64,000 bases of DNA from Henriciella sp. (GTDB lineage Bacteria > Pseudomonadota > Alphaproteobacteria > Caulobacterales > Hyphomonadaceae), in assembly GCF_002733705.1 (NCBI RefSeq), contig NZ_NVWP01000034.1; one strand, 5' to 3'. The position numbers and the translations under genes were made by a program. A model generated the notes under the pieces. It was given only the letters and a program-made list of their open reading frames with translations. It did not search any database and was not told the origin of the DNA. Of the stretch, positions 22,255 to 47,925 are shown in pieces. Within the stretch, counting starts at the first letter, position 1, and every line of letters starts with the position of its first letter.

Positions 22255-22268
22255 CTCCCCCTCTCGGG

Positions 22269-22297
22269 TTGACAGGGGACAGCCACACACCCAAGTT
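22269..22297 (+). promoter_or_regulatory. putative sigma70 promoter for topA
   Basis: Perfect TTGACA at 22269-22274; -10 element weak. Confidence 0.4.
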
Positions 22298-22323
22298 CCG
22301 CCGCGCTCTGGAGGTTGCCCTAT

Positions 22324-24918
22324 ATGAAAGTCGTTGTTGTTGAGTCGCCGGCAAAAGCGAAGACGATCAACAAATATCTGGGAAAGGACTACAAGGTCCT
22401 CGCCTCCTATGGGCATGTGCGGGATCTGCCGTCAAAGGACGGGTCGGTCGATCCAGAGAATGATTTCGAGATGATCTGGCAGGCCGATTCCAAATCGGCA
22501 AGCCGCATCAAGGAAATTGCGGAAGCCACCAAGACGGCCGACAAGCTGATCCTCGCGACTGACCCTGATCGCGAAGGCGAGGCGATCTCCTGGCACCTCC
22601 TGGAAGCGCTGGAAAAGCGTAAGGCGCTGAAGGGCATTCCGGTCGAGCGCGTTGTCTTCAACGCGATCACAAAGAATGCAGTCACTAACGCGATGGAGCA
22701 GCCGCGCGAGATCGATCAGGAACTGGTGGACGCCTATCTCGCCCGCCGCGCCCTCGACTATCTCGTCGGATTCAACTTGTCGCCGGTGCTCTGGCGCAAG
22801 CTGCCCGGTTCGCGCTCTGCGGGGCGCGTGCAGTCGGTTGCCCTGCGCATCATCTGCCAGCGCGAGCTGGAGATAGAGACGTTCCAGCCGCAGGAATACT
22901 GGTCGATCGAGGCAGACCTTCGCGCCAAGGACGGCACCAGCTTCAAGGCGCGCCTGCATGCGCTGGACGGCGAAAACCTGAAGAAATTCTCCCTGCCCGA
23001 CGAGAAAACGGCCACCGCCGCGCTCGAAGCGGTGAAGGTCGGCGGCTATACGGTAAGCTCGGTTGAATCCAAGCCCGTCAAACGCAATCCGCCCCCGCCC
23101 TTCATTACGTCGACGCTCCAGCAGGAAGCCTCGCGCAAGCTCGGTTTTACCGCCAAGCGCACGATGGGCGCCGCCCAGAAGCTCTATGAAGAAGGCCGCA
23201 TCACCTATATGCGGACCGACGGCATCAATATGGCCGAAGAGGCCTATCACGCCTCACGAAAGCAGATCGAAAGCGATTATGGGGCGCGCTATCTGCCGGA
23301 GAAGCCGCGCCGCTATTCCTCCAAGGCCAAGAACGCCCAGGAAGCGCACGAAGCCATTCGCCCGACCGATTTCTCGATCCGCCCCGAGGAGTATCGCGGC
23401 GATGGGGACCTTAAAAAGCTCTACACGCTGATCTGGCGGCGCGCCGTCGCCTCGCAGATGGAAGCGGCTGTCTTTGAGCGCACGACGCTGGATTTCATGT
23501 CCAAGGACAAGCGCGCCCAGCTGCGCGCCACGGGCCAGGTCGTGCAGTTTGATGGCTTCATCAAGCTCTACACCGAAGGCCGCGATGATGGCGACGAGGA
23601 CGAGGATGCTGAAGGCCGCCTGCCAAAGATGAAGGAAAGCGACCACGCCGACCTAGTCGAGGCAAAGTCGGACCAGCATTTCACCCAGCCGCCGCCCCGC
23701 TATACCGAAGCCTCGCTCGTCAAACGCCTGGAAGAGCTCGGCATTGGCCGTCCGTCTACCTACGCATCGACCCTGTCTACGCTGGAAGACCGTGACTATG
23801 TGCGGCTTGAAAAGAAGCAGCTGATCCCGGAGGACAAGGGTCGGCTGGTGACGGCCTTCCTGGAGAACTTCTTCGCCCGATATGTGGAGTATGACTTCAC
23901 GGCCGAGCTAGAAGAACAACTCGACGTCATCTCGGATGGCAAGCTCGACTGGAAGGCCTTCCTGCGTGAGTTCTGGGTACAGTTCCAGGCCGCCATCGAC
24001 GAGACGAAAGAACTTCGCGTGTCGAACGTGCTCGACGCGCTGAACGAGGCGCTTGGGCCTTATGTGTTTCCGAAGACTGACGAGAACGGTAATCCGAAGG
24101 AAAACCCGCGCGAATGCCCGCTCTGCGGCGAGGGTGAGCTATCGCTGAAACTTGGCCGGCATGGCGCTTTTGTCGGTTGTTCGCGTTATCCCGAATGCAA
24201 GTTCACGCGGCCCTTCTCGGCAGACAGTGAACAGGACGGCGCGATCAACCCGGAAGGCGAGGAGCTGGGCCTGCACCCTGAAACGGGCGAGCCCGTCTTC
24301 CTGAAGACGGGCCGGTTCGGACCCTATGTGGAAATGTCACTCGGTGAGGACGAAAAACCCAAGCGCACAAGTGTACCCAAGGGCTGGGATGTGAAAGCCG
24401 TGACGCTGGACCAGGGCGTCAAGCTTCTCTCCCTGCCGCGCGATGTCGGCGAACATCCCGACGATGGTGAGATGATCCGCGCCAATCTCGGCCGCTATGG
24501 CCCTTACGTTCAGCATCATCGCACCTTTGCCAATGTGCAGACCGTCGAGGAGCTGTTCGACATCGGCCTTAACCGTGCCGTGACGCTGATCGAGGACAAG
24601 AAAGCAAAACGTGGCGGGGGCCGCGGGGCCGAACCGCTCAAGGAGCTCGGCAAACACCCTGCTGATGACGAGCCGATCCACGTCTATGAGGGCCGCTATG
24701 GCCCCTATGTGAAGCACAAGAAGACGAATGCGACGCTTCCGAAGGACACCACGCCGGACACGGTCACACTGGAACAGGCGATTGAACTGATCGACGCCAA
24801 GGCGAAGAAGCCGGCCAAGAAAAAGGCGCCAGCGAAGAAGAAGGCCACCGCGAAAAAAACAACGGCCAAAAAGACATCGACGACGAAGAAGACGTCGACG
24901 ACGAAGGCGAAGGACTAG
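22324..24918 (+). CDS. topA: DNA topoisomerase I
   Basis: VVVESPAKAKTI, LATDPDREGEAI, SAGRVQS, ITYMRTD (catalytic Tyr), GIGRPSTY, one Zn ribbon, C-terminal repeats, Lys-rich tail. Confidence 0.98.
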   Translation: MKVVVVESPAKAKTINKYLGKDYKVLASYGHVRDLPSKDGSVDPENDFEMIWQADSKSASRIKEIAEATKTADKLILATDPDREGEAISWHLLEALEKRKALKGIPVERVVFNAITKNAVTNAMEQPREIDQELVDAYLARRALDYLVGFNLSPVLWRKLPGSRSAGRVQSVALRIICQRELEIETFQPQEYWSIEADLRAKDGTSFKARLHALDGENLKKFSLPDEKTATAALEAVKVGGYTVSSVESKPVKRNPPPPFITSTLQQEASRKLGFTAKRTMGAAQKLYEEGRITYMRTDGINMAEEAYHASRKQIESDYGARYLPEKPRRYSSKAKNAQEAHEAIRPTDFSIRPEEYRGDGDLKKLYTLIWRRAVASQMEAAVFERTTLDFMSKDKRAQLRATGQVVQFDGFIKLYTEGRDDGDEDEDAEGRLPKMKESDHADLVEAKSDQHFTQPPPRYTEASLVKRLEELGIGRPSTYASTLSTLEDRDYVRLEKKQLIPEDKGRLVTAFLENFFARYVEYDFTAELEEQLDVISDGKLDWKAFLREFWVQFQAAIDETKELRVSNVLDALNEALGPYVFPKTDENGNPKENPRECPLCGEGELSLKLGRHGAFVGCSRYPECKFTRPFSADSEQDGAINPEGEELGLHPETGEPVFLKTGRFGPYVEMSLGEDEKPKRTSVPKGWDVKAVTLDQGVKLLSLPRDVGEHPDDGEMIRANLGRYGPYVQHHRTFANVQTVEELFDIGLNRAVTLIEDKKAKRGGGRGAEPLKELGKHPADDEPIHVYEGRYGPYVKHKKTNATLPKDTTPDTVTLEQAIELIDAKAKKPAKKKAPAKKKATAKKTTAKKTSTTKKTSTTKAKD
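24871..24906 (+). repeat. 18-bp tandem repeat in topA tail (KTSTTK x2)
   Basis: aagacatcgacgacgaag / aagacgtcgacgacgaag, 17/18 identical. Confidence 0.85.
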
Positions 24919-24944
24919 CCGATGGAATGTGAGGACCGGCAGCC

Positions 24945-25403
24945 ATGAACGTCAGGCCCGCCACGCTCGATGACCTGCCAGCCCTGCTTGAGTTCGAGCA
25001 GGGCATCATCACCGCAGAACGGCCTTATAACCCACTGCTGAAGCCCGACCCGATCACCTACTACGATATCGGCGAGATGATCGAGGCAGACGATGCCGAG
25101 GTCATGGTGGTGGAGATCGATAGCGAACTCGTCGCATCGGGCTATGCGAAGACCAAGCGGTCCCGGCATTACACCTCACCCGACTGGCACGCCTTTCTCG
25201 GTTTCATGTTCGTGAAGGAAGCGTTCCGCGGACGGGGCCTGAACCGGATTCTTCTCGACGCCCTGCTCGACTGGTCTCGCAAGCGAGGCCTTACCGAAGT
25301 CCGACTCACGGTCTATCCTGGCAACGAGCCGGCTATACGCGCCTATGAAAAAGCCGGCTTTTCGCCCTATCTCACAGAAATGAGGCTTGGCCTGAATGAG
25401 TAG
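24945..25403 (+). CDS. GNAT family N-acetyltransferase
   Basis: MNVRPATLDDL; FMFVKEAFRGRG; N..AIRAYEKAGF. Confidence 0.9.
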   Translation: MNVRPATLDDLPALLEFEQGIITAERPYNPLLKPDPITYYDIGEMIEADDAEVMVVEIDSELVASGYAKTKRSRHYTSPDWHAFLGFMFVKEAFRGRGLNRILLDALLDWSRKRGLTEVRLTVYPGNEPAIRAYEKAGFSPYLTEMRLGLNE

Positions 25404-25513
25404 GCCCATTCCACCTTGCTTTCATGGCAAGCCGAACCAGATCCTCTGGAAGAGGTTCAATAGCTTTGTGAAATAAAAACAAGGCATTTCAAATGCCACC
25501 GGAAGGACAGATC

Positions 25514-25645
25514 ATGACAGATCCGAAACTGAAAGAAGAAAAAGCACGCCAGGGCGAGACCGGAAAAGGCGTTCGCTATGTACTTGTTATATCCACGATC
25601 GCCGCAGTGATCGGGCTGGGCCTCATCTTTGCTTTCGTGATCTGA
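25514..25645 (+). CDS. 43-aa small membrane protein (below ORF-track cutoff)
   Basis: RBS GGAAGGA; MTDPKLKEEKARQGETGKGVRYVLVISTIAAVIGLGLIFAFVI; one C-terminal TM helix. Confidence 0.75.
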   Translation: MTDPKLKEEKARQGETGKGVRYVLVISTIAAVIGLGLIFAFVI

Positions 25646-25705
25646 AGAGAACGTCCAGGCTGAAAGAGTCCGGGCAAATCGCGCAGAATCCCCTATATGG
25701 GGAGC

Positions 25706-27973
25706 ATGAGTTTTCCCGACCGAGAGACAGTTCTCGACTTTATCGCCAAGAATCCGTCCGCGACGACGAAACAGGACATTGCGCGTGGCCTGAAAGTGAA
25801 AGGGCGTGAGCGTCAGAACCTCAGGCAAGTTCTGAAGGATCTGGAGGCTGACGGCACCCTGGAACGCACAGGCAAGCGCGCCTGGGCCAAGACCGATACG
25901 CCTCCGCCAACAGGCGTCATCATTTTCGAGGAAATCGATGATGATGGCGAGCTGATGGCCCGGTCCGTCGGGCGCGACGGCGCCTTCGGTCCGCCTATCC
26001 GCTTTGCCGGTTATAGCGGCAAATCAAAGGGTCCGGCCCCCGGCATCGGGGACAAGGGCCTTGCCCGCATCAATGAGGCGAATGGCGAATATCACGCCAA
26101 GCTCCTGAAACTTTTCGAGAAACGCGATGAAGAATCGCAGCTGACCGGCCGGTTCGAACGCAATCCGAAAGGCGGACGCGTTATCCCGGCGAGCCGCAAG
26201 GACAAGCGGACACTCCTTATCGACAAGAGCGACACCAAGGGCGCCGAGGATGGCGACCTTGTTACCGCCATGCCCAAACCGGGCAAGCCGAACGGACCCG
26301 CGTTCGGTGTCGTCACGGAAATCATCGGTCGCATGGACGACCCACGCGCAGCCTCGCTGCTCGCCATTTATGGTCACGATATACCGGTCGAATTCCCCAA
26401 GGACGTCCTCAACGAGGCGGAGACCATCAAGCCGCTGAACGCGCCGCGTGAGGATCTCACCCATATCCCGCTCATTACCATCGATCCGCATGATGCGCGC
26501 GACCATGACGATGCCGTCTATGCCGAAAAGCTCGACGATGGCTGGAAGGTGATCGTCGCGATTGCGGACGTGGCCGCCTATGTGCGCCCCGGCACTGCGC
26601 TCGACCGCGAGGCGCAGAAGCGCGGCAACTCTACCTATTTTCCGGACCGGGTCGTCCCGATGCTGCCTTTTGAGCTGTCGGCCGATGCCTGCTCGCTGGT
26701 CGACAATGAGGACCGCCCCTGCATGGCGGTCGAGATGATCTTCGACCAGTCGGGTACGAAGCGCTCCCATCGCTTCATTCGCGGCACAATGCGGTCCCAT
26801 GCAAAGCTCTCCTATGAAGAAGCGCAGGCGGCCATTGATGGCAAAACGGGCGGCGCTGGGGAGCCTTGGCTCAAGCCCGTGCTGAAGCCGCTATGGGGCG
26901 CTTTCGAAGCGTTGGGCGAGGCCCGCGCCCGCCGTGCCCCGCTGGCGCTCGACCTGCCGGAAAAGCGTGTCGAGATCAGCGAGGATGGCAAGGTCACGGG
27001 GATTGTGGAGAAAGAACGCTTCGATGCGCACAAGCTCATCGAGGAATTCATGATTCAGGCCAATGTGGCCGCCGCCGAGACGCTGGAGAAGCTCGGCTCA
27101 CCCCTGCTCTACCGGGTTCACGATCAGCCGTCCGATGCCAAGCTCGCCGCGCTGGCCGATTTTCTCCAGACGATGGACATCAAATGGGCGCTGGGGGAGC
27201 GCCCCCAGACGCACCGCTTCAACCGGCTCCTCAGCGATCATGCAGACACCGAACATGCCGGCACAATTTCCGAAATCGTTCTGCGCTCTCAGGCCCAGGC
27301 CATCTATGCGCCGGAGAATGCAGGCCATTTCGGTCTTAACCTCTCCAAATATGCCCACTTCACCTCGCCTATCCGGCGCTATAGCGACCTCATCGTCCAC
27401 CGGGCTCTGATCTCGGCGCTTGGTCTTGGTGACGACGGGCTGACCAAGGAAATGGCCGCCTCGCTTGAGGATATTGCGAGCCATCTGGTCGATACCGAAC
27501 GCCGCTCCATGGCAGCCGAACGCGAAGCGACGGACCGCTATCTTGCACTCTATCTTGCCGACAAGGTCGGTGCCGAGTTTGAAGGGCGGATTACGGGCGT
27601 CACACCAGCTGGCCTTTTCATCCGCCTAGGCGGTACCGGCGCCGACGGCTTTTCTCCAATTTCCAAGCTCTCTGACGACTATTGGGTGCATGATGAAGGC
27701 GCAATGGCGCTGATCGCACGCGGCTCGGGCAAACGGTTCGAGATGGGTCAGGTCGTGAAAGTTGAACTTGCCGAAGTCACCCCGCTTCAGGGCGGCCTTC
27801 TGCTCAAGGTTCTCTCTCCACCCCGCCCCAAGAAGCCTGGTGAAAAGCCACCGGCCTCGCGCGGGGGCAGGTCTGGTCCGCCCGGGCGTTCGCGTGGCAA
27901 GATGTCGAAGGCGCGCAAGAAGACGCGGCAGAAAACCTCCCGCAAAAAGGGAGCCAAGGGAGGAAAAAGCTGA
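25706..27973 (+). CDS. rnr: ribonuclease R
   Basis: ITIDPHDARDHDDA, RGNSTYFP.RVVPMLP, HFTSPIRRYSDL, S1 domain, basic tail; GGGAG RBS before ATG 25706. Confidence 0.96.
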   Translation: MSFPDRETVLDFIAKNPSATTKQDIARGLKVKGRERQNLRQVLKDLEADGTLERTGKRAWAKTDTPPPTGVIIFEEIDDDGELMARSVGRDGAFGPPIRFAGYSGKSKGPAPGIGDKGLARINEANGEYHAKLLKLFEKRDEESQLTGRFERNPKGGRVIPASRKDKRTLLIDKSDTKGAEDGDLVTAMPKPGKPNGPAFGVVTEIIGRMDDPRAASLLAIYGHDIPVEFPKDVLNEAETIKPLNAPREDLTHIPLITIDPHDARDHDDAVYAEKLDDGWKVIVAIADVAAYVRPGTALDREAQKRGNSTYFPDRVVPMLPFELSADACSLVDNEDRPCMAVEMIFDQSGTKRSHRFIRGTMRSHAKLSYEEAQAAIDGKTGGAGEPWLKPVLKPLWGAFEALGEARARRAPLALDLPEKRVEISEDGKVTGIVEKERFDAHKLIEEFMIQANVAAAETLEKLGSPLLYRVHDQPSDAKLAALADFLQTMDIKWALGERPQTHRFNRLLSDHADTEHAGTISEIVLRSQAQAIYAPENAGHFGLNLSKYAHFTSPIRRYSDLIVHRALISALGLGDDGLTKEMAASLEDIASHLVDTERRSMAAEREATDRYLALYLADKVGAEFEGRITGVTPAGLFIRLGGTGADGFSPISKLSDDYWVHDEGAMALIARGSGKRFEMGQVVKVELAEVTPLQGGLLLKVLSPPRPKKPGEKPPASRGGRSGPPGRSRGKMSKARKKTRQKTSRKKGAKGGKS

Positions 27974-28701
27974 TGGCCGGAAAACTGGGCACAGCCTTTG
28001 ACAAGGAAAGGGACGGCGATGTCATCCAGAGGGACCGCCCCACCCCTCGGCCGAAGGATGCAGCCACGCTCATCCTGGTGCGGCGCGATCAAGCCAAGCC
28101 GCGCCTTCTGATGGGCAAGCGGTCGGGCGGCCACACCTTCATGCCGGACAAATATGTTTTCCCTGGCGGACGTGTGGATACGGCGGACGGACGGGTGCCT
28201 TCCCTGAGTGAGCTGCGCGAGAGCGAGCACCGTAAAGTGGCGCACAGGACGCGCCGCAAGCCGCGTGCCTTCGGCCTTACCGCTATCCGGGAAACATTTG
28301 AGGAAACAGGACTCATTGTCGGGCGTGCCAATGCGTTTCCAGGCCGTGTGGCGCAGGACTGGCGTAAATATGCCGATCAGGGCGCAGCGCCCTGCCTGCG
28401 GGGCTTCACGATGATCGGCCGCGCAATAACCCCGCCCTATCGTCCCAAAAGGTTCGATGCACGCTTCTTCATGGCCGAGGCCGAAGACGTCCTGATCGAT
28501 GAGCGCCCGCCGGTTGACGGTGCCGAGTTGCACGACCTGCAATGGGTGACGCTGGACGATGCCCTGGCGCTCGACCTGCCAAATGTGACACGCTTCATGC
28601 TGGGCGAGATCGCAGAACGTCTGAAGCAGAAGGATGTCGGCGCCCTGCGCCCGCCATTCCTGCGCTGGACCGCTGGTGGCCACTCGCAGGACCGTATCTG
28701 A
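27973..28701 (+). CDS. NUDIX hydrolase
   Basis: AATLILVR, FMPDKYVFPGG.VD, AIRETFEETG Nudix box, RFDARFF. Confidence 0.9.
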   Translation: MAGKLGTAFDKERDGDVIQRDRPTPRPKDAATLILVRRDQAKPRLLMGKRSGGHTFMPDKYVFPGGRVDTADGRVPSLSELRESEHRKVAHRTRRKPRAFGLTAIRETFEETGLIVGRANAFPGRVAQDWRKYADQGAAPCLRGFTMIGRAITPPYRPKRFDARFFMAEAEDVLIDERPPVDGAELHDLQWVTLDDALALDLPNVTRFMLGEIAERLKQKDVGALRPPFLRWTAGGHSQDRI

Positions 28702-28730
28702 AGACGCAGGTCCCGGGTGCGCACAGGCGC

Positions 28731-28760
28731 TTGACTTTAAAAGCCCACCCCTCCATTAAG
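28731..28760 (+). promoter_or_regulatory. putative sigma70 promoter for rpmG
   Basis: TTGACT-N17-CATTAA. Confidence 0.55.
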
Positions 28761-28803
28761 CGCCCTTCGAATTTCTCAGAACACGCGAGCAAGAGCACCC
28801 GTC

Positions 28804-28971
28804 ATGGCCAAGCCGACAACCATCAAGATTCGCCTGAACTCGACTGCCGGGACGGGCTTTTTCTATGTGACCAAGAAAAACCCGCGCAACATCACCGAAA
28901 AGCTGGTGATGCGGAAATATGATCCGATCGCGAAGAAGCATGTCGAATTCAAGGAAGGCAAGATCAAATAG
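28804..28971 (+). CDS. rpmG: 50S ribosomal protein L33 (Zn-free form)
   Basis: Manual translation [55 protein letters not shown]; not in ORF track. Confidence 0.97.
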
Positions 28972-28999
28972 GTCTTCGCTTTCATAGCAATTCAGATCC

Positions 29000-29029
29000 A
29001 GCCGGACCTTTGCGTCCGGCTTTTTCTTT
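29000..29029 (+). terminator. intrinsic terminator after rpmG
   Basis: AGCCGGAC-ctttgc-GTCCGGCT followed by TTTTCTTT. Confidence 0.85.
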
Positions 29030-29104
29030 GGGGTCTACGTAAAAGTCTCTATGGACCTGCCCCCCTTCTCGCACGTTATACTCCCTGAAAATTGGAGGTG
29101 ACCC

Positions 29105-29575
29105 ATGGCACTTGAATTCAACAAGGTTGTTGCCGTCATTGATGTCGATGACGATCTCGCCAGTCTGATCATGGAAACGGCGTCGAAGCTGACCGCAGAT
29201 GCCGGCGAACTTCACGCAATCGATTCCAACCCCTTCATTACGACATTCGAGTCGCCCTATGCGGCCGGCGCCCTTGAGGCGGATACCCAGGCCCACCAGG
29301 CGGACGCCAAACGCCGCAAGGAAGATATGAACGCGCTGAAGGCCAAGTTCGCCCCAGGGGCGACTGTGGCGGTTCTGGACGGCGACCCGTCGCGAGATGC
29401 GGCCAGCTATGCCAAGAAGATCGATGCAGACCTCATTGTCATCGGTTCGCAGCAGAAGACCTGGTGGAAACGCCTGTTGCTCGGATCTGAGAGCCTCGAC
29501 ATGTTGCGGGAGGCCCCCTGCGCGGTGTTTGTCGTAACGAACGCGCATGTGAAGCGTGTAAAGGCAAAGGGTTAG
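29105..29575 (+). CDS. universal stress protein (UspA family)
   Basis: ADLIVIGS...LLLGS...LREAPCAVFVV; GGAGG RBS. Confidence 0.88.
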   Translation: MALEFNKVVAVIDVDDDLASLIMETASKLTADAGELHAIDSNPFITTFESPYAAGALEADTQAHQADAKRRKEDMNALKAKFAPGATVAVLDGDPSRDAASYAKKIDADLIVIGSQQKTWWKRLLLGSESLDMLREAPCAVFVVTNAHVKRVKAKG

Positions 29576-29601
29576 ATTGCTTTTGGCGGCCGGTCAGCAG
29601 C

Positions 29602-31361: not shown

Positions 31362-31420
31362 TTCCCCTGCTTCACCCTCACATCAAAGTCTTCTTCAATA
31401 TCCACATAGCCCGAAGAGTC

Positions 31421-31435
31421 TTAATCTTTGTTTGA
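31421..31435 (+). promoter_or_regulatory. CtrA-box-like site upstream of divK
   Basis: TTAA-tctttgt-TTGA in the divK/dinB divergent region. Confidence 0.45.
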
Positions 31436-31483
31436 ATTCAGCCGGTAACTTGCCGCTCCGGCAGGAACATGAGAAGAACAAGC

Positions 31484-33294: not shown

Positions 33295-33302
33295 GGACTG
33301 TT

Positions 33303-38010: not shown

Positions 38011-38020
38011 AGGCTGAAGC

Positions 38021-39493: not shown

Positions 39494-39660
39494 CTGGCAA
39501 TGATCCACATACAGAGGTTTGCGCCTTCGTATGCTGGCCCGGCTCGAGGTTTCAAGCCCCGTCTACTGAAAGGCCGCACATGAAATTTTGCGCGTGTGAG
39601 CTAAATACGTGTAATATCACGCATAGTCTCCCGCTCGGGTTGTAAATCAACAGGAGGAAA

Positions 39661-40119
39661 ATGATGAAACGTTCCCACATCCTGACCGCCCTTCCCGCGC
39701 TGGCCTTGATGGCCGCAGCAGCCTGCACGACATCCCCGCAACAGGATTCAGAGGCGGAGGCTGAGAATTGGCGGACCGATGCGCGTCTCGGCGAACAGGT
39801 TGACCGGATTTGCTTTGCATCCGCTGTCGATGACTTTCAAATGACGACGCGGCGGAGCGTCGTGGTCGAGCGCGGCGTCAATGATCACTACCTGATCGAG
39901 ACCATGGGAAACTGCCAGGATCTGCGTAACGCTCTGTCGATGTCTTTCGATACGTTTCCGGGCTCAAGCTGTATCAGCAAGGGCGACAGCATCTACGCCT
40001 ATGACAGCCTGTTTGGCCCCGACCGGATGGACATTCCGCCAATCCGTTGCCCTATTAAAGCAATCTATAGATGGAGCGAAGATGCTTCTGATCAGGACGC
40101 GACAGCCGAAGAAAGATAA
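39661..40119 (+). CDS. Cys-rich lipoprotein, paralogue 1 (resembles DUF6491)
   Basis: GGAGG RBS; lipobox-like AAAAC; RLGEQVDRICF...YLIET..NC..L...SC...RCPIKAIYRW. Confidence 0.75.
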   Translation: MMKRSHILTALPALALMAAAACTTSPQQDSEAEAENWRTDARLGEQVDRICFASAVDDFQMTTRRSVVVERGVNDHYLIETMGNCQDLRNALSMSFDTFPGSSCISKGDSIYAYDSLFGPDRMDIPPIRCPIKAIYRWSEDASDQDATAEER

Positions 40120-40334
40120 CGGCGCGAGTCCAGACTGCCCCCAAGGTTTGCCGGCCGAAAATGTCCAGAAAGCCTGGATCGCAGTCGTCGAGTGCGGGCG
40201 TTTTTAATCCCGCGCCAAAAGCTCCACATGGAAGCCAGACCAATATTGTGGCTTGCAGTCGTTTGACCGCAACCGGTAATGGCGATACATTCTAGCTTCA
40301 GTTGCAAAACTATCCCTTAGCCAAGGAAGTTGCC

Positions 40335-40784
40335 ATGTCTCCAAATACCTTCGCTGCCACACTTGCAAGCGCCGCTGGATTAACTCTCCTAGCACTTCCC
40401 TCGCATGCCGATGACGCGGGCACACAAGTCAGTGCACTTCAAGACGGCCGTCTTGGCGAACAGGTCGATCAACTTTGTATCAATGCCAAAGGCTTCAACT
40501 TCCGCGACATGACAGATCGGACGGTTATCATCGAAACCGCCGGCGAGGACTTCCTTGTGGAAACGGTCAAGAAATGCGGCAATCTTTCCACCGCCAGAAA
40601 TCTCTACGTTCATTCGGAGCAGAGAAATTCCCGATGCATCAAGGCGAGCAATTTGCTTGTGGCGGAAGCGCCCTTTACTTACTCTACATTTATTCCTTCG
40701 GAGTCTCGTAGCAGTCATTGCCGGATCGGATCCATCTATGAATGGAACGAAGACGCCTTAGAAGCTTCGGAAGCCAGTTCATAA
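40335..40784 (+). CDS. Cys-rich secreted protein, paralogue 2 (resembles DUF6491)
   Basis: Signal peptide; RLGEQVDQLCI...FLVET..KC..L...RC...HCRIGSIYEW. Confidence 0.75.
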   Translation: MSPNTFAATLASAAGLTLLALPSHADDAGTQVSALQDGRLGEQVDQLCINAKGFNFRDMTDRTVIIETAGEDFLVETVKKCGNLSTARNLYVHSEQRNSRCIKASNLLVAEAPFTYSTFIPSESRSSHCRIGSIYEWNEDALEASEASS

Positions 40785-40880
40785 GTCAGACCCAAAAAAA
40801 GCTTATCATTGAAAAGCTCAAACGACTTAGCTTTTGATTGGGTCCTAGTTTTTGCAGCTCTACACAAGAAGGAGTTTCTC

Positions 40881-41318
40881 ATGAAACTATTTGCGATGAT
40901 CGGTGCAGCGTCCTCTGCCACGTTCTACTTTGGAGCCGCAGCGATCGCTGAAGCGCCAACTTTGGGACCCGCTGATTACCTCAACGACGTCCGTCTCGGA
41001 GAGAAGGTCGACCGCATCTGCTTTCGCGATCAGGTCGATGATTTTCGCGAGGGCACCGAAAGCACTATCATCCTGGAACGAGGCGCCAAGGATTACCTCG
41101 TAGAGACCGAGGAACCTTGCGGTGAGCTTGATGGAGCCCAAACGCTTTCCCTGAACAACGCATTCTCAAGCGGACGGTGCATTACCACTCACGATCAATT
41201 CTATGCGTCCCAGAACCGGTTTAGCAGCGTGGGCGATACGTCAGATCTTTGCCGGATCAAAGCGATCTACAGGTGGAATGAAGACGCACGAGTGCAAGAT
41301 GGCGAATCCATAGGCTAG
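40881..41318 (+). CDS. Cys-rich secreted protein, paralogue 3 (resembles DUF6491)
   Basis: AGGAG RBS; signal peptide; RLGEKVDRICF...YLVET..PC..L...RC...LCRIKAIYRW. Confidence 0.75.
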   Translation: MKLFAMIGAASSATFYFGAAAIAEAPTLGPADYLNDVRLGEKVDRICFRDQVDDFREGTESTIILERGAKDYLVETEEPCGELDGAQTLSLNNAFSSGRCITTHDQFYASQNRFSSVGDTSDLCRIKAIYRWNEDARVQDGESIG

Positions 41319-41341
41319 TCGCCTGAAATCCCGCCTTATCC

Positions 41342-41380
41342 ACCCCCGCAGAAGCCTATGGCTCTGCGGGGGTTCTTTTT
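41342..41380 (+). terminator. intrinsic terminator after the paralogue triplet
   Basis: ACCCCCGCAGA-N10-TCTGCGGGGGT followed by TCTTTTT. Confidence 0.88.
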
Positions 41381-41382
41381 GC

Positions 41383-41670
41383 CTATTCCACAGCCTTGGG
41401 AACAACGAAGAAGCCGTCTTCGCTCTTTGGCGCATTCGCCAGGACCTGGTCCTGGATATTGCCATCGGTCACGACATCGTCGCGCATCGGCAGTGTGGCC
41501 TCGACAACGGACGTCATCGGCTCGACGCCCTCTACATCGACCTCATTGAGCTGCTCAATCCAGCCCATGATTGCCGACAGCTCATTTGCCAGCGGCTCAA
41601 GCCGGTCTTCGCTCACGGCGATGCGTGAGAGGCGGGCAACCTTGCGGACGTCTTCCTTCGTGACACTCAT
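41383..41670 (-). CDS. gatC: Asp/Glu-tRNA amidotransferase subunit C
   Basis: MSVTKEDVRKVARLSRI, EQLNEVDVEGVEPM, NAP...DGFFVVPKAVE. Confidence 0.96.
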   Translation of the reverse strand: MSVTKEDVRKVARLSRIAVSEDRLEPLANELSAIMGWIEQLNEVDVEGVEPMTSVVEATLPMRDDVVTDGNIQDQVLANAPKSEDGFFVVPKAVE

Positions 41671-41750
41671 GAGCGCTCTCTCCAATCGACAGAAGCGTGC
41701 GATACGCGCTAGGCAGGTCAAATTCAAGAGACGGGGGCACCGCACATTCC

Positions 41751-42209
41751 ATGGCAATCACCGATCTCTTCGATCTTCCCCCGTCCGGGCCGCTTGTCGG
41801 TATAGACCCCGGCTCGAAGACGCTCGGGATTGCCGCGTGCGACGCAGGCCGTCTGATCGCCTCACCGGTGGAAACGATACGGAAGGGCCGCAAGCTCGCC
41901 CCCTCGCTGGACCGCCTGTTCGAGATTATGGACCAGCGGCACACCGTGGGTCTCGTGATTGGCCTGCCTCTGAACATGGATGGCAGCGAAGGTCCGCGGG
42001 CGCAGTCCGCACGGGCGCTGGCCCGCAACATCATCGCCCGGCGCGACATTCCCATCGCCTTTCAGGATGAGCGCCTCTCCAGCTCGGAGGCTGAGCGGGC
42101 CATGATCGCGGGCGACCTGTCGCGCGCACGCCGCGCAGAGCTGATCGACGCCTCAGCGGCCGCGATCATCCTGCAGACAGCCATCGACCGCCTGGCCAAC
42201 GCCTCATGA
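41751..42209 (+). CDS. ruvX: Holliday junction resolvase-like RuvX/YqgF
   Basis: GIDPGSKTLGIA, GLPLNMDGSEGP, DERLSS, IDA.AA.IILQ. Confidence 0.93.
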   Translation: MAITDLFDLPPSGPLVGIDPGSKTLGIAACDAGRLIASPVETIRKGRKLAPSLDRLFEIMDQRHTVGLVIGLPLNMDGSEGPRAQSARALARNIIARRDIPIAFQDERLSSSEAERAMIAGDLSRARRAELIDASAAAIILQTAIDRLANAS

Positions 42210-43132
42210 GCGCCTTTCTGGCCGCCCTCGTCCCGGTCATCCTGATCACGGCGCTGGGCCGCTTTCTTGGCTGGCGAAAAACTCTCCCGGACGATGGCTG
42301 GCGCGCAGTCGAGCGGCTGGCCTATGTCGTTCTCTTACCGGCTCTCATCATCCGCGCGCTTGCCAATGCCCCTTTTGAAGAGGCGCCATGGGCGCTCATG
42401 GCCGTCCTGATCGGTGCGCAATGCCTGCTTGGCGCCGTCGGAATTCTGGCCCGCGTCTGGCCAGGCATCCGGCGCCCCGAAATCGGTACGATCATCCAGT
42501 CCAATGTCCGCTGGAACACTTTCGTGGCCCTCTCCATCGGTAGCGCCCTCTTTGGTGAAGAAGGTCTTGCGCTTGTCTCTATCGCGGCTGCGGCCATGAT
42601 CCCCACCGCCAACATATTGAGCGTCACCGCCCTCACCGCTCACGCAGAGCGAGATGGGCTGCCAAAACGGAACCCGGTTACAGAGCTTGCCCGCAATCCG
42701 CTCATCATCGCCTGCCTCATCGGCGGCGCGCTTGCTGCATTCGACATCGCCATTCCGGAACTGCTCGAGCTCACCATAGATCTTCTGGGTCAGGGCACGA
42801 TTGCGCTTGGCCTTCTCGCAGCCGGGGCTGGGATGGATATCGCCGCGCTTGGCGGGGCGGGGGTAAAGACAGTCACCTGGTCTATGGTACGGCTTGTCGG
42901 GCTACCCTTGATCGCGATTGCCGGGGCGCTTCTGCTCGGCGTTACCGGCATTCCGCTTGCGATTGCCGTGATCAGCGCCTCGGTGCCGACCGCGACCAGC
43001 TCCTATATCCTGGCGCGTCAGCTTGGCGGAGACGCACCGCTCGCGGCCAATCTCATCGCCATGCAGACCGTGCTTTCCATGGTAACGATGCCGCTCATCT
43101 GGTTCGCCTGTCTCAGTCTTGGGCTGTTCTAG
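42206..43132 (+). CDS. AEC (auxin efflux carrier) family transporter
   Basis: Multi-TM; ERLAYVVLLPAL, NPLIIAC, PTATSSYILARQLGGD. Confidence 0.88.
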   Translation: MSAFLAALVPVILITALGRFLGWRKTLPDDGWRAVERLAYVVLLPALIIRALANAPFEEAPWALMAVLIGAQCLLGAVGILARVWPGIRRPEIGTIIQSNVRWNTFVALSIGSALFGEEGLALVSIAAAAMIPTANILSVTALTAHAERDGLPKRNPVTELARNPLIIACLIGGALAAFDIAIPELLELTIDLLGQGTIALGLLAAGAGMDIAALGGAGVKTVTWSMVRLVGLPLIAIAGALLLGVTGIPLAIAVISASVPTATSSYILARQLGGDAPLAANLIAMQTVLSMVTMPLIWFACLSLGLF

Positions 43133-43186
43133 CACTTGCCCGCCACTGGAATCGTGCCTAAACCGCCGAAAATCGAGAGGCAGCGC

Positions 43187-44134
43187 ATGTCCATTCCGGG
43201 CTATAGCTACAAGTTCAGTCACGAGCACCTGTTGAGCATTGAGGACCTGTCCCGGCTCGACATCGAACACATTCTCGACCTCTCAGAGGAATTCGCTGAA
43301 GCGACGCGTGCCGGCAAGCGGCCTGAGCCTCATCTTAAGAACATGACGGTGATCAATCTCTTCTTCGAGAATTCGACCCGGACCATGTCCAGCTTCGAGA
43401 TCGCCGCGAGACGCCTTGGCGCCGACGTCATTGCCATGCCGGTCGCGCAATCAAGCGTGAAGAAGGGCGAAACGCTGATCGATACGGCCATGACGCTGAA
43501 TGCGATGGCGCCTGACGCCATCGTCATCCGCCATTCTGCGTCGGGCGGGGTGAAGCTCCTCTCGCGCAAGGTGGACTGCGCCGTCATTAATGCCGGGGAC
43601 GGCACCCACCAGCATCCGACACAGGGCCTGCTCGACACGCTGACCATAAGGCGGGCCAAGGGACGGATCGAAGGGCTGAAAGTCACCATATGCGGCGACA
43701 TCCTGCATTCGCGTGTTGCCCGGTCGACCACGCTGGCGCTGCATCTGCTTGGAGCAGAGGTCACACTCTGCGGGCCCGCAACACTTCTGCCATCGGGCAC
43801 GGAACATTGGGGCGCGGCGCGCACGACCCATCACTTCGATGAAGCCATTGAGGGCGCCGATGTTGTCATGATGCTGCGCCTCCAGATGGAGCGTATGAAT
43901 GGCGGCTACCTTCCGAGCCAGCGCGAATACTTCCGTAATTTCGGTCTCACCAAGGAACGCCTTTCCCGCGCCGCCCCCGATGTCACCGTGATGCATCCCG
44001 GCCCGATGAATCGCGGCATCGAGATCGAGAGCGCCATCGCGGACGGCGAACATTCGGTCATCACCCAGCAGGTCGAGATGGGCGTTGCCGTGCGCGAGGC
44101 GGTCCTCAAACTCCTCGCCGGGAGGCGCGTATGA
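43187..44134 (+). CDS. pyrB: aspartate carbamoyltransferase catalytic subunit
   Basis: [50 protein letters not shown]. Confidence 0.97.
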
Positions 44135-45402
44135 GCCGCACGCTGATCACCAATGCCCGCCTGCTCTGCCCGGCTGCGGGCCTTGATGAGCCAGGCAGCC
44201 TTCTCATTGAGAATGGCGAGATCGCCACCATCGGCGATGTTTCGGGGGCGGCCGAAACGACGATCGACGCTCAGGGACTTTGCCTCGCGCCGGGCCTCAT
44301 CGACCTTCGCGTCAAGACGGGGGAGCCCGGCGCCGAGCAACGTGAGACACTTGAGACAGCCTCCCGCGCCGCTGTCTCAGGCGGGGTCACCACAATGGTG
44401 GTCATGCCCGATACCAATCCAGTCATCGACGATGTCGCCCTTGTCCAGTTCATCGCCAATCGTGGCCGCGAAACGTCGAAGACGCGTGTCTATCCCGCTG
44501 CGGCACTGACCATGGGCCTCAAGGGCGAGGCAATGTCAGAGATCGGCCTCATGCAGGGCTCGGGCGCCGTCTTCTTCACCAATGGCGACTGGCCGGTCGC
44601 CGACACCTCTGTTCTACGCCGCACAATGGCCTACGCGGCCAGCTGCGACGTCATGGTGGCAAGCCGCGCCGACACCCATGCGCTATCGGCACGCGGTGTG
44701 ATGAATTCCGGCGCCCGTGCCGCCCGTATGGGCCTTACCGGCCTGCCACGCGAAGCAGAATGGATCGGCCTTGCCCGCGACCTTCTCCTGGCAGAGGCCA
44801 CGGGCTGCCGTCTTCTGGTCGATCAGGTCTCGACGGGGCGCAGCCTCGACATGATCCGCGACGCGCGCGAGCGCGGCGTCGAGGTCTATGTCAGCGTCGC
44901 CGCCCACCATCTGTTTTTCAATGAGACCGATGTCGGCGACTATCTCACCTACTGCAAGGTGAACCCGCCTTTCCGGAGCGAGGAAGACCGCCAGGCCCTG
45001 ATCGAAGGTCTGGCCGCAGGTGAGATCGACGCCGTCGTTTCCGCGCATGACCCTCAACCCCCAGAAGAAAAGCGCCTGCCATTCGGAGAAGCTGCGTTTG
45101 GAGCGGCAGGCCTTGAGACCGTGCTCTCTGCCCTGCTCGCGCTGGTGCAGGATGAGCGGCTTGGCCTGCTTGACGCCTTGCGGTCAGTGACCGCCGCGCC
45201 CGCAAGTCTTATCGGCGTCCCGCAGGGTCGTCTCGCGGCGGGCCTGCCGGCGGACCTCATCCTGTTCGATCCGGAAAAGCCCTGGTTCTGCGAACGTGAG
45301 AACCTTCTCTCCCGCTCAGTGAATTCCCCATTCGACGGGCGGCGCATGGTCGGCCGTGTGATGCACACGCTTGTTGGCGGTGAAACGGTCTTTCAACGCT
45401 AA
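44131..45402 (+). CDS. pyrC: dihydroorotase-like protein, probably inactive PyrC'
   Basis: Amidohydrolase fold (GEPG, AA..GG.TT, KVNPP.R), but DLRVK replaces DxHxH and SAHDP replaces SDHAP. Confidence 0.85.
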
Positions 45403-45406
45403 GGCA

Positions 45407-45982
45407 TCAACGTGCAAGCAGCGCCAGGAGGCGGGCTTCCAGCGCGACAAGGTCAACGCTCTTACCCCGGGCCAGAATATCGAACTCCACACCGCGGCAG
45501 TAACGCACCAGCAGGTCGACAGCGTCCTGCGGCGTAGGATGGCCAAGCCGCTCGAGCGTGCGCACCAACCTTACCGGTAACAGTCCTGCCCAGTCGCTGA
45601 CTTCACGCTGGAGGAGCTCGTCGCGCTGCGCATAGGCGATCATCGCATATTCGATCCGCGCAAGCTCCGCACGGTCCGGATCGGTCGCAATCAACATCAT
45701 CAGAAACTGCACGACGTCACGCTCTGAAGACAGCGGGCGCGCGGTCAGCGCCCCGTCCAGACCGGCTTCATAGTCTGCCATATAGAGGCGAAATGCGTCC
45801 GCGAGCAGCGCGTCTATCGTGTCGAAATGATAGGTGATGGTGCCGGGCGAGACGCCGGCCTGCGAAGAAACGAGGCGATGCGTGATACGGTCAGCGCCCC
45901 AGTCCGGGACAAGATCGAGCGTCGCCTGGAGAATTTTCTCCCGCGCGGGCACATCCTCAAGGGGGTCGCTCTGGCCTGCCAT
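45407..45982 (-). CDS. TetR family transcriptional regulator
   Basis: REKILQATLDLV...ITHRLVSSQAGVSPGTITYHF HTH; start at ATG 45982. Confidence 0.88.
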   Translation of the reverse strand: MAGQSDPLEDVPAREKILQATLDLVPDWGADRITHRLVSSQAGVSPGTITYHFDTIDALLADAFRLYMADYEAGLDGALTARPLSSERDVVQFLMMLIATDPDRAELARIEYAMIAYAQRDELLQREVSDWAGLLPVRLVRTLERLGHPTPQDAVDLLVRYCRGVEFDILARGKSVDLVALEARLLALLAR

Positions 45983-46016
45983 GACGGGATCAGCGCTAGT
46001 CCATATAGGCAAAGCG

Positions 46017-46024
46017 ATGGTTAA
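46017..46024 (-). promoter_or_regulatory. CtrA half-site TTAACCAT
   Basis: ATGGTTAA on + = TTAACCAT on -, in the tetR / plsY-dprA divergent region. Confidence 0.4.
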
Positions 46025-46130
46025 GATTGCTCGCACGAGAACCCGTATGGTCCGTCCGCCCGCCTTGACCTCGCCGCAAGACGCGCACACAAGACCCGTC
46101 CGCCTCAAGGCTTCAACCGGGACGAGACAT

Positions 46131-46739
46131 ATGGACGGGTTCCCCTTTATCATCGCAGCGCTCGGCGGCTATCTGCTGGGCTCCATCCCCTTCGGCCTGT
46201 TCATCACGCGGGCTGCCGGGCTCGGCGATATCCGCCAGATCGGCTCTGGTAATATCGGCGCGACAAATGTCCTTCGCACCGGCCGCAAGGATCTGGCCCT
46301 CGCTACCCTGCTTCTGGACAGTTTCAAGGCCGGCCTTGCCATTCTCGGCTTCGCGCTCCTCTTTGGAGACCGCAATGTCGGTCTGATCGCTGGGGTCTTT
46401 GCCTTTCTCGGCCATTGCTATCCCGTCTGGCTGCGTTTCAAGGGCGGCAAGGGCGTCGCGACCTATGCCGGCCTTCTTCTGTTTGCCTCCTGGAAAGGCT
46501 TCCTGGTCGCTGCGCCGATCTGGCTTGCTGTCTTTTTCCTCTCGCGCATCTCGTCACTCGCCGCCCTGACCGCAGCCCTGCTCGTGCCCATCGGCGCCTG
46601 TTTTCTCGGTGAGACGCCGTTTGCCGTGGGCGTCCTCGCAGCGTTGAGCGTCCTTGTCTTCTGGACGCACCGGGCAAACCTTGTCCGCCTTCTGAAAGGT
46701 ACCGAACCGCGCTTCGGACAGAAGAAAGACGCCGGATGA
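46131..46739 (+). CDS. plsY: glycerol-3-phosphate acyltransferase PlsY
   Basis: YLLGSIPFG, GSGNIGATNVLR, GHCYP..L.FKGGKGVAT, HRANL.RL..G.E. Confidence 0.96.
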   Translation: MDGFPFIIAALGGYLLGSIPFGLFITRAAGLGDIRQIGSGNIGATNVLRTGRKDLALATLLLDSFKAGLAILGFALLFGDRNVGLIAGVFAFLGHCYPVWLRFKGGKGVATYAGLLLFASWKGFLVAAPIWLAVFFLSRISSLAALTAALLVPIGACFLGETPFAVGVLAALSVLVFWTHRANLVRLLKGTEPRFGQKKDAG

Positions 46740-47809
46740 GTAGCGCCTTCGGGGACGCCGCGCGCCTCGCCTGGCTGGCCCTCGCCCGTGCCCCGCAGGT
46801 TGGTCCCGTTACATTTTTCCAGCTACTTGCCCGGTTTGGGTCGCCCGAGGCGGCGCTGAGAGGCGTGCCCTCGATCCGCCCTGACATGGATGCAGCAAGA
46901 CGCGAGCTGGAGGCGACACATGAAGCTGGCGGAAGGCTTCTCTATGCCGAAGATGACGCCTACCCGGCCGCCCTGGGCGAGCTCTCGCCGCCACCCCCTG
47001 TCCTGACGGTTTTCGGCGACGCCGCCCTCTTTCAGCGCTCCGCTGTCGCGATAGTAGGTGCACGCGACGCGTCTGCGGCAGGGCGGCGGATGGCGCGAGA
47101 GCTCGCCAGCGCGCTTGGCGAGGCCGGCCTTGTGATTGCCTCCGGTCTTGCCCGCGGCATTGATGGCGAGGCGCATGCCGCCAGTCTCGATACCGGAACG
47201 ATTGCGGTTCTCGCCGGTGGCGCCGATCAGGTCTATCCGCCGCAGCATGGAGACCTCTATGCCGCCATCCGCGAACGCGGGCTCATCGTCTCCGAGCGTC
47301 CTCTGGGCCGCCGCGCGACCGCGCAGGACTTTCCCCGGCGCAACCGGATCATTACCGGCCTGTCTGTCGGCACTGTCATCGTGGAAGCGGCAGAAAGGTC
47401 GGGGTCGCTCATTTCCGCCCGCATGGCCGGCGAGCAGGGACGAGAGGTCATGGCTGTGCCAGGCTCGCCGCTCGACCGCCGCGCCGCCGGCACCAACAGG
47501 CTGCTGCGCGAGGGCGCGACACTGATTCGTCATGGCGAAGACGTGCTGGAGGCGATTTCCAGTCAGATCGGTGTATCCAGTACCGGCTTTCATCCTGTCC
47601 TGCCACTCGACCCACCTGACCGCCCGGATGTGGAAGATACCGGCCTTCCTGCGCGGATCCTTGAAGCGCTTTCTCCGACGCCACTTCCAATCGCAGAAAT
47701 TGCTCGCGCAAGTGGCTGTAGCGCCCGCCAGTGCGCCGCCTGCCTGATGGAGCTTGAACTGGAAGGCCGTGCCCTCACTCATACGGGTGGGCTGGCGTCC
47801 CGGGTCTGA
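46736..47809 (+). CDS. dprA: DNA-processing protein DprA
   Basis: VAIVGAR, IASGLARGIDG.AH, FPRRNRII.GL, VEAAERSGSLISA, AVPGSPLD. Confidence 0.95.
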   Translation: MSSAFGDAARLAWLALARAPQVGPVTFFQLLARFGSPEAALRGVPSIRPDMDAARRELEATHEAGGRLLYAEDDAYPAALGELSPPPPVLTVFGDAALFQRSAVAIVGARDASAAGRRMARELASALGEAGLVIASGLARGIDGEAHAASLDTGTIAVLAGGADQVYPPQHGDLYAAIRERGLIVSERPLGRRATAQDFPRRNRIITGLSVGTVIVEAAERSGSLISARMAGEQGREVMAVPGSPLDRRAAGTNRLLREGATLIRHGEDVLEAISSQIGVSSTGFHPVLPLDPPDRPDVEDTGLPARILEALSPTPLPIAEIARASGCSARQCAACLMELELEGRALTHTGGLASRV

Positions 47810-47925
47810 GGACTGTATCAGCCCGGCAATCAGGCTTAATAAAAGATTCTTTCCTGACGAGAAAATATGGACGCGCCATAGGACTTGTGCGATCCGGGCG
47901 GACCTTAGGAGTTGAGGGAGACGGG

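Follow-up and report, generated by a model that had tools for sequence, protein, structure and literature searches.

Large replication-associated inversions and exchanges between replichores are the dominant form of structural change in bacteria, and they are frequent in Caulobacter (PMC9584773; PMC4889656). Inversions symmetric about ori and ter, together with the inter-replichore "translocations" that result from them, are credited in PMC4889656 to Eisen et al. 2000 and Tillier & Collins 2000. In rearrangements of this kind, a single reciprocal exchange between intergenic spacers that lie far apart yields both new junctions together, and a second, overlapping exchange shifts the end segments and restores the middle, without the participation of a mobile element. 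The history proposed below for a locus of Henriciella sp. shares these features, although for this lineage we infer both the inversion and the ori/ter symmetry. It is also unusual in its outcome, as the two halves of one conserved cluster have been re-joined, swapped, inside another conserved cluster, and a living lineage keeps the halfway state.

Two alphaproteobacterial gene clusters are the closest references for this locus: the one running from gatB to HIT, and the lptF-lptG-lptD-surA-pdxA-rsmA cluster. In the window, which is the whole stretch of 64,000 nucleotides analysed here, the order is holC-pepA-lptF-lptG, then topA…HIT, then (convergent with HIT) gatB…dprA, and finally lptD-surA-pdxA-rsmA. 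The genes of the gatB…HIT cluster are the same as elsewhere and keep their relative orientations, and each half is internally collinear with outgroups; however, the cluster is cut between dprA and topA and its halves are swapped. Likewise, both flanks match the lptF…rsmA cluster gene for gene, the match reaching fabF-acpP-fabG at one end and holC at the opposite end, but lptD-surA-pdxA-rsmA lies downstream of dprA instead of lptG, and lptG and lptD are 25.6 kb apart. Checking of gene identity and order with NCBIfam and Pfam bears out the gene order and the three junction positions given in the preliminary description of this DNA, with one correction: gatA and gatC are separated by three tandem DUF6491 genes. 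The features are as follows, the flanks and half-blocks being assigned with NCBIfam.

17986-22254: left flank C, with holC (-), pepA (-), lptF (+) and lptG (+)
17986-18456, (-) strand: holC
18459-19958, (-) strand: pepA
20021-21136, (+) strand: lptF
about 21133-22254, (+) strand: lptG
22255-22314: junction J1, the lptG/topA spacer, 60 bp
22315-35658, (+) strand except as marked: half-block B, with topA, a GNAT gene, rnr, a NUDIX-like hypothetical gene, rpmG, usp, pleD (-), divK (-), dinB, a Rid-like gene, GDPD, a FemAB-like gene and HIT
22315-24918: topA, followed by the GNAT gene
25697-27973: rnr
28804-28971: rpmG, with the NUDIX-like gene upstream and usp downstream
31469-32764: dinB, after pleD (-) and divK (-)
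34044-35207: FemAB-like gene
35224-35658: HIT
35659-35759: junction J2, the convergent HIT/gatB spacer, 101 bp
35760-47809: half-block A, with gatB (-), two small ORFs (-), gatA (-), three DUF6491 genes (+), gatC (-), ruvX (+), an AEC transporter gene (+), pyrB (+), pyrC (+), tetR (-), plsY (+) and dprA (+)
35760-37277, (-) strand: gatB
38021-39508, (-) strand: gatA
39661-41318, (+) strand: three tandem DUF6491 paralogues, between gatA and gatC
41383-41670, (-) strand: gatC
46736-47809, (+) strand: dprA
47810-47886: junction J3, the dprA/lptD spacer
47887-57296: right flank D, with lptD, surA, pdxA and rsmA (+), then gmk, yicC, mltG and fabF (-)
47887-50127, (+) strand: lptD

GC skew in the window tracks the coding strand, and hence it is no guide to the direction of replication.

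The arrangement of both clusters in outgroups establishes what the order was before these changes. Overlapping collinear stretches of A and B in about 50 outgroup loci recover the cluster gatB-gatA-gatC-ruvX-pyrB-pyrC-plsY-dprA-topA-rnr-rpmG-pleD-divK-dinB-rid-GDPD-FemAB-HIT. The dprA-topA adjacency is found across six alphaproteobacterial groups, and it is collinear with the remaining cluster, again in overlapping stretches, in Hellea, Algimonas, Litorimonas, Glycocaulis, Euryhalocaulis, Caulobacter, Phenylobacterium, Mesorhizobium, Hyphomicrobium, Sphingomonadales and Rhodospirillales; in one outgroup locus (L136) the run from dprA-topA to HIT lies on a single contig. In many outgroup contigs, including L136, L151, L164 and L167, where dprA precedes the core B genes and these stand in window order, HIT is followed by clpA and clpS, both on the (-) strand. 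On the other hand, lptF-lptG-lptD-surA-pdxA-rsmA is contiguous in Maricaulis (L088) and in a Caulobacteraceae MAG (L089), with holC-pepA-lptF-lptG directly upstream of lptD in the former and lptF-lptG upstream of it in the latter, and flank D of the window is collinear with both, as well as with Ponticaulis (L176/L184). The preliminary description had proposed that the block corresponds, in rotated form, to a cluster contiguous in other genomes, and that lptG and lptD adjoin each other elsewhere; the outgroups uphold both points, the latter in Maricaulis and the Caulobacteraceae MAG, whose outer flanks match those of the window. The ancestral state was therefore X-[A: gatB…dprA]-[B: topA…HIT]-clpA-clpS, plus a separate [C: holC-pepA-lptF-lptG]-[D: lptD-surA-pdxA-rsmA…]. 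X is a placeholder here, as the neighbour on the gatB side varies among outgroups: Caulobacter-type loci have RcnB-like and GST genes in this position, and a Brevundimonas-type MAG has hda/aspS.

The rearranged order is present in every Henriciella and Hyphomonas locus sampled. J1 is also found in Hyphomonas polymorpha (L090) and in MAG OZ243114 (L091), and J3 in H. marina, H. litoralis, H. barbarensis, Hyphomonas johnsonii, Hyphomonas sp. and many MAGs. J2, which within Henriciella is seen only in the window itself, recurs in a group of MAGs (L013/L014/L024) and in Hyphomonas-like loci (L097-L099), and in three further loci (L016/L018/L094) with an additional spacer of about 0.8 kb. In MAG OZ243114, two loci lying 2.8 kb apart (L091 and L018) jointly hold all three junctions. 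The recurrence of J1 to J3 across Henriciella, Hyphomonas-type loci and allied MAGs speaks against an event that is recent or peculiar to this genome; the preliminary description had anticipated that an order shared by the whole family would be old and not novel, and for this clade the order is indeed shared. The rearrangement is thus old and was inherited by all Henriciella and Hyphomonas.

The order of events is recorded in Ponticaulis. In Ponticaulis sp., a taxon assigned by exact protein matches, the arrangement reads holC-pepA-lptF-lptG followed by topA…HIT-S41-clpA-clpS-DUF1499-phasin, with J1 in two loci (L172/L173), while J3 is present in Ponticaulis profundi, P. koreensis and Ponticaulis sp. 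In the isolate P. koreensis, plsY-dprA is joined to lptD on scaffold 1, and the run rnr…HIT-S41-clpA-clpS belongs to scaffold 2; in P. profundi a cysH-like gene adjoins gatB…dprA/lptD. J2 is therefore absent in this genus, as HIT is followed by S41-clpA-clpS and gatB by the cysH-like gene. In all assemblies examined, the two halves fall on separate contigs or scaffolds, and a distance of at least 0.2 Mb lies between them. Ponticaulis thus has both reciprocal junctions, J1 and J3, observed in different assemblies (that of P. koreensis shows J3 and HIT-clpA), it keeps the HIT-clpA flank, and its outer flanks of C and D match Maricaulis. In a neighbour-joining tree of two proteins, PlsY and DprA, computed without support values, Ponticaulis branches as the sister group of all final-state taxa and every taxon with dprA/lptD falls into one clade, and the identity tables agree with it. 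J1 and J3 formed first; since Ponticaulis has both while HIT is still at clpA-clpS, the HIT/gatB junction arose later, in a separate event. A TSCPD gene of the window (2836-5103) was considered as a marker of the old clpA side and discarded, as the TSCPD gene beyond clpA in Ponticaulis is only 37-38% identical and its orthology is uncertain.

Taken together, the block is probably vertically inherited, chromosomal core DNA whose order results from two successive ancient rearrangements in the Hyphomonas/Henriciella lineage. The first step would date to the last ancestor shared by Ponticaulis, Hyphomonas and Henriciella: the dprA/topA and lptG/lptD spacers would have recombined reciprocally to give lptG/topA and dprA/lptD, leaving intact the outer flank HIT-clpA, which is the state that survives in Ponticaulis. 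The most parsimonious form of this step would be one large inversion between oppositely oriented clusters. In a second step, after the split of Ponticaulis, breaks just outside HIT and gatB would have joined the halves as C-B-A-D, and this may again have been an inversion, of almost the same arc, that restored the orientation of the intervening chromosome. Two overlapping inversions yield exactly the apparent circular permutation placed between the two lpt genes, and a mobile element is not required.

No similarity beyond shuffled controls is found between J1 and J3, whose alignment score equals the shuffle mean, and the score of 23 between J2 and J3 is not meaningful, the shuffle maximum being 25. 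Microhomology between the junction spacers was consequently rejected, and no repeats were found at the junctions. J2 holds an inverted repeat with a CCCGGG stem (35693-35742) that resembles a terminator.

The same two-step order might also have been reached by routes other than inversion, for instance by resolution of the chromosome into two circles at directly oriented sites and re-fusion elsewhere, or by duplication, transposition and loss of large segments. While the order of the events is observed, the orientation of the loci is presumed, and Brevundimonas-type genomes have rearranged the same neighbourhoods differently, their dprA-topA being cut from rnr and placed 5-8 kb from ppk-ppx-rnd-purMN-ndk/holC-pepA; both points leave some room for such routes. 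Nevertheless, they demand more events per step than a single inversion, and among large rearrangements inversion is by far the most frequent type (PMC9584773), so that we consider them unlikely. Tandem duplication followed by random loss was discarded separately: the outer neighbours of the block are lptG and lptD, whereas in outgroups the cluster has clpA-clpS beyond HIT and a variable set of genes beyond gatB, and lptG and lptD are adjacent to each other.

Much less probable is the model of the preliminary description, in which gatB…HIT was excised as a circle closed at HIT/gatB and reintegrated by a crossover between the dprA/topA and lptG/lptD spacers, all three junctions arising simultaneously. 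Such a model requires only two recombination events, and in formal terms the order in the window is the ancestral cluster circularly permuted, at a site whose sides adjoin each other elsewhere. The single circle is contradicted by Ponticaulis, with its J1 and J3 on halves at least 0.2 Mb apart on different scaffolds, its lack of J2 and its HIT still beside clpA-clpS, as this lineage would need to have split the block exactly at J2 and rebuilt the ancestral HIT-clpA adjacency. In addition, the circle would bear topA, gatCAB, plsY, rpmG and pyrBC without a replication origin. These genes are indispensable in model bacteria.

A mobile or horizontally acquired island (an ICE, a transposon or a prophage-like element) that inserted between lptG and lptD is hardly credible as an explanation of the block. 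A discrete block between genes that neighbour each other in relatives does recall genomic islands and other integrative elements, and superficially looks like an insertion. Yet the block consists throughout of housekeeping orthologues of the core genome, with identities that follow the species tree, outgroups hold the same genes as one chromosomal cluster elsewhere, and the patchy distribution of such elements is lacking. NCBIfam and Pfam scans of candidate ORFs across 379-63472 detected no integrase, recombinase or transposase; no tRNA that might serve as a target was found in the window, and no direct att-like repeats at the block ends. The G+C content is 0.58-0.64 inside and outside the block, the only dip being the DUF6491 spot (about 0.55). 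Domain scans and repeat and tRNA searches thus agree with the earlier remark that no integrase, IS or att-like repeat is visible at the junctions; given the age of the event, however, this absence is to be expected and is uninformative.

Finally, a chimeric contig is a natural concern, as the window derives from a metagenome-assembled organism, but misassembly is ruled out by comparison of contigs and reads and by independent contigs: in four independent metagenome runs, single contigs without any mismatch run across all three junctions, in keeping with the junction-spanning check that had been proposed, the lptG/topA stretch is present in 20 runs, which belong to at least 13 studies, the exact DprA protein adjoins lptD (J3) on at least 22 contigs of independent assemblies, and the isolates H. 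marina, H. litoralis, H. barbarensis, Hyphomonas polymorpha and Hyphomonas johnsonii carry the same junctions.

Two successive rearrangements therefore represent ordinary chromosome evolution, leaving a clade-defining synteny marker of a known kind; neither a new type of element nor a new mechanism is involved. The locus illustrates how a cut-rotate-paste event can be mimicked by a pair of ordinary reciprocal rearrangements, with the halfway stage alive in Ponticaulis, and gene-order patterns of the "circular permutation" type alone do not imply circular intermediates. As a synteny character, dprA/lptD together with lptG/topA defines Ponticaulis, Hyphomonas and Henriciella, while HIT/gatB defines Hyphomonas and Henriciella. 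The junction states can help to order the genera of Hyphomonadaceae and to classify MAGs. The breakage of the conserved dprA-topA and lptG-lptD adjacencies also means that topA now follows lptG and lptD-surA-pdxA-rsmA now follow dprA, so their transcriptional context may have changed.

A more speculative idea, to which we attach a rather low probability, is that the topA and lpt clusters have been brought together repeatedly in Caulobacterales, with topA placed after lptG in the Hyphomonas clade and, independently, near holC-pepA in Brevundimonas-type genomes. If so, these loci would be habitual recombination partners through contacts within the folded chromosome (inter-replichore contact), or else selection would link envelope-export genes with topA. 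In that case, the dprA/topA and lptG/lptD spacers would be reusable fragile sites and not chance breakpoints. In a more modest form of the idea, the two junction states would be a clean rare-genomic-change marker that orders Ponticaulis, Hyphomonas/Henriciella and the Hellea-Litorimonas-Algimonas group.

Besides its order, the block differs from the outgroup cluster in some of its content. The usp and GNAT genes were not found in the outgroup loci examined, and the three DUF6491 genes, over which the G+C content dips to about 55%, and tetR are lineage-specific additions. In none of the outgroup loci are gatA and gatC separated by a DUF6491 homologue; five of these loci have coordinates for both genes, which are adjacent there or within about 250 bp of each other. 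The number of DUF6491 copies varies within the clade, with three in the window, two in H. marina and H. barbarensis, and one in H. litoralis, Hyphomonas and Ponticaulis.

Scans of the window with NCBIfam and Pfam families confirmed the gene calls and gene order of the preliminary description, and place the 25.6-kb block between lptG and lptD, its two halves converging at HIT/gatB.

Left flank, lptG end at 22254: holC (minus strand), pepA (minus strand), lptF, lptG
Block, first half, topA start at 22315, HIT end at 35658: topA, GNAT, rnr, NUDIX-like hypothetical, rpmG, usp, pleD (minus strand), divK (minus strand), dinB, Rid-like, GDPD, FemAB-like, HIT
Block, second half, first part, gatB at 35760-37277 (minus strand): gatB, two small ORFs, gatA (minus strand), three DUF6491 ORFs, gatC (minus strand)
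39661-41318, between gatA and gatC: the three tandem DUF6491 paralogues, small, secreted or lipoprotein-like
Block, second half, second part, dprA end at 47809: ruvX, AEC-family transporter, pyrB, pyrC, tetR (minus strand), plsY, dprA
Right flank, lptD start at 47887: lptD, surA, pdxA, rsmA; then, on the opposite strand, gmk, yicC, mltG, fabF
Remaining genes, first set: aat, mlaD, TSCPD protein, pentapeptide proteins, aspS, rnd, ppx, ppk, hda
Remaining genes, second set: purMN, BLUF protein, ndk, fabG, fabD, rpsF-rpsR-rplI, dnaB

The closest named relatives of the window are Henriciella (DprA 76% identical to that of H. marina, TopA 89% to that of H. mobilis), with Hyphomonas next.

The arrangement is real. 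At least 22 contigs have the exact window DprA beside lptD; they come from independent assemblies, namely a JGI metagenome, two NCBI MAGs and an ENA assembly. At least 13 studies contribute to the 20 public runs in which a 2-kb stretch over lptG|topA is present. In four of these 20 runs, each of the three junctions (lptG|topA, HIT|gatB and dprA|lptD) is crossed by single contigs with zero mismatches. A minor contig of run X16 (depth 35 versus about 360) links 35640, near the HIT end, to 42138 within ruvX; with 18 unmatched letters at the join and a shorter side of only 21 letters, it is probably a related-strain fragment or a k-mer coincidence.

The ancestral order was sought with a DprA profile scan of one genome per species, which gave 80 loci onto which the window proteins were mapped. 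The order gatB-gatA-gatC-ruvX-(AEC)-pyrB-pyrC-plsY-dprA-topA-rnr-hyp-rpmG-pleD-divK-dinB was recovered as overlapping collinear stretches in Hellea, Algimonas, Litorimonas, Glycocaulis, Euryhalocaulis, Marinicaulis, Caulobacter, Phenylobacterium, Mesorhizobium, Aliihoeflea, Hyphomicrobium, Sphingomonadales and one Rhodospirillales MAG. With the FemAB-like gene as anchor, a scan of metagenomes showed that the outgroup cluster runs on as dinB-rid-GDPD-FemAB-HIT, usually followed by clpA and clpS (both minus strand), a phasin and a D-Ala-D-Ala carboxypeptidase; one locus (L136) carries dprA-topA…HIT on a single contig. Maricaulis and a Caulobacteraceae MAG have lptF-lptG, in Maricaulis after holC-pepA, leading directly into lptD-surA-pdxA-rsmA-gmk-yicC-mltG-fabF-acpP, that is, both window flanks with nothing in between. 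The contiguity of dprA-topA and of lptG-lptD, previously assumed, is thus borne out by outgroup loci, and the block is a rotated ancestral cluster set between ancestral neighbours.

The dprA|lptD junction occurs in H. marina, H. litoralis, H. barbarensis, Hyphomonas johnsonii, a Hyphomonas sp. MAG, about 12 Hyphomonadaceae MAGs and Ponticaulis; lptG|topA in Hyphomonas polymorpha and MAG OZ243114, in which two loci 2.8 kb apart jointly carry all three junctions; and HIT|gatB in MAGs of the OZ243114 type as well as in contigs sharing 83-87% DNA identity with a Hyphomonas MAG. Since so many lineages share these junctions and their DprA is only 55-60% identical to that of the window, the rearrangement is ancient, not recent as had been implied, and the window displays the normal synteny of its clade. 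Family scans and a tRNA check found no transposase, integrase or tRNA within the window, and the junction spacers show no similarity beyond shuffled controls, in agreement with the earlier reading that no integrase or shared repeat is visible; such absence of scars is expected of an ancient event.

Ponticaulis provides a halfway state. In P. profundi, gatB…dprA|lptD is present and the gatB neighbour is cysH-like, not HIT. In two metagenome contigs clpA-clpS comes after the topA…HIT half and there is no gatB within 9.5 kb; these contigs are the closest relatives of the rearranged clade (TopA 70% versus 59-64% for outgroups), have Ponticaulis-like G+C, and their proteins match 'Ponticaulis sp.' exactly. 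The Ponticaulis sp. locus reads holC-pepA-lptF-lptG|topA-rnr-NUDIX-rpmG-pleD-divK-dinB-rid-GDPD-FemAB-HIT-S41 peptidase-clpA-clpS-DUF1499-phasin, and pyrC-plsY-dprA|lptD is also present in Ponticaulis sp. MAGs. The P. koreensis isolate has dprA|lptD and rnr…HIT-S41-clpA-clpS on separate scaffolds of 2.35 and 0.61 Mb, respectively, and the two loci are separated by at least 0.2 Mb. A PlsY+DprA neighbour-joining tree groups every dprA|lptD taxon into a single clade, with Ponticaulis sister to all taxa having the full arrangement. The two adjacencies generated when the dprA|topA and lptG|lptD spacers exchanged reciprocally are thus both present in Ponticaulis, which keeps the ancestral HIT-clpA; HIT|gatB therefore formed later, in the Hyphomonas/Henriciella stem.

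The circular permutation proposed in the preliminary description holds as a pattern, the block being rotated and inserted when compared with the ancestral state. The mechanism proposed there, a single excised and reintegrated circle, is not supported: it predicts three simultaneous junctions, whereas Ponticaulis has two of them with HIT-clpA kept, and would have had to rebuild that ancestral adjacency exactly. Two successive steps, both probably inversions, would suffice. With A for gatB…dprA, B for topA…HIT, X and Y for their outer neighbours (Y the clpA-clpS side), C for holC-pepA-lptF-lptG and D for lptD onwards, the simplest first step would be one inversion between two clusters in opposite orientation on a single circular chromosome, turning X·A·B·Y…-D·-C into X·A·D…-Y·-B·-C. 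If X|A and Y|B were then the breakpoints of another inversion, the result would be X·Y…-D·-A·-B·-C, which on the other strand reads C-B-A-D, the window order. This model agrees with known bacterial chromosome dynamics (PMC9584773; PMC4889656). The block is a clade-specific case of a known kind of rearrangement, of value as a synteny marker and also as a well-resolved cautionary example.

In the window gatC does not adjoin gatA: the three DUF6491 genes stand between them in a patch where G+C falls to about 55%. There are two copies in H. marina and H. barbarensis and one in H. litoralis, Hyphomonas and Ponticaulis (in the last on the opposite strand). No outgroup locus has a homologue between gatA and gatC, which are adjacent or at most about 250 bp apart in the five outgroup loci with both genes and printed coordinates. 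The insertion seems to mark the same clade as a second synapomorphy and to have been amplified locally in recent times. Two small minus-strand ORFs without family match (108 and 89 aa; 37365-38010) lie between gatB and gatA; both have homologues in H. marina, the 108-aa ORF also in H. barbarensis and H. litoralis. A PEP-mutase-family ORF (59348-60370) separates fabD from rpsF, which are directly adjacent in two Ponticaulis loci (L176, L184). A stand-alone BLUF blue-light sensor gene (16864-17304) lies between purN and ndk, a position with no window homologue or Pfam match for it in the Hyphomonas polymorpha (L090), MAG OZ243114 (L091) and Maricaulis (L088) loci.

The gatB…dprA half is further eroded in several MAG lineages of the clade (L009, L010, L012, L017; L013-L018, L024, L094), some retaining only plsY-dprA before lptD and others lacking AEC-pyrB-pyrC between ruvX and plsY. 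About 0.8 kb extra lies between HIT and gatB in L016, L018 and L094; in H. litoralis, a CMD-family gene adjoins gatB and the locus stops short of HIT. Brevundimonas-type genomes (L023, 11177-20995; L025, 9728-19641) have dprA-topA without rnr next, followed by ppk-ppx-rnd-purM-purN-ndk in L025 and, after about 5 kb, by holC-pepA in L023, where gatB is flanked by an hda-like gene and aspS. The genes after dprA-topA are those upstream of lptF in the window, and this order is an independent rearrangement of the same two neighbourhoods. In an unrelated alphaproteobacterial metagenome contig (L113, 11182-12569), rid-FemAB-HIT follows ispDF-cinA and an IS110-family transposase stands directly after HIT, which makes the outer side of HIT a breakpoint in a further lineage as well, there with an IS.
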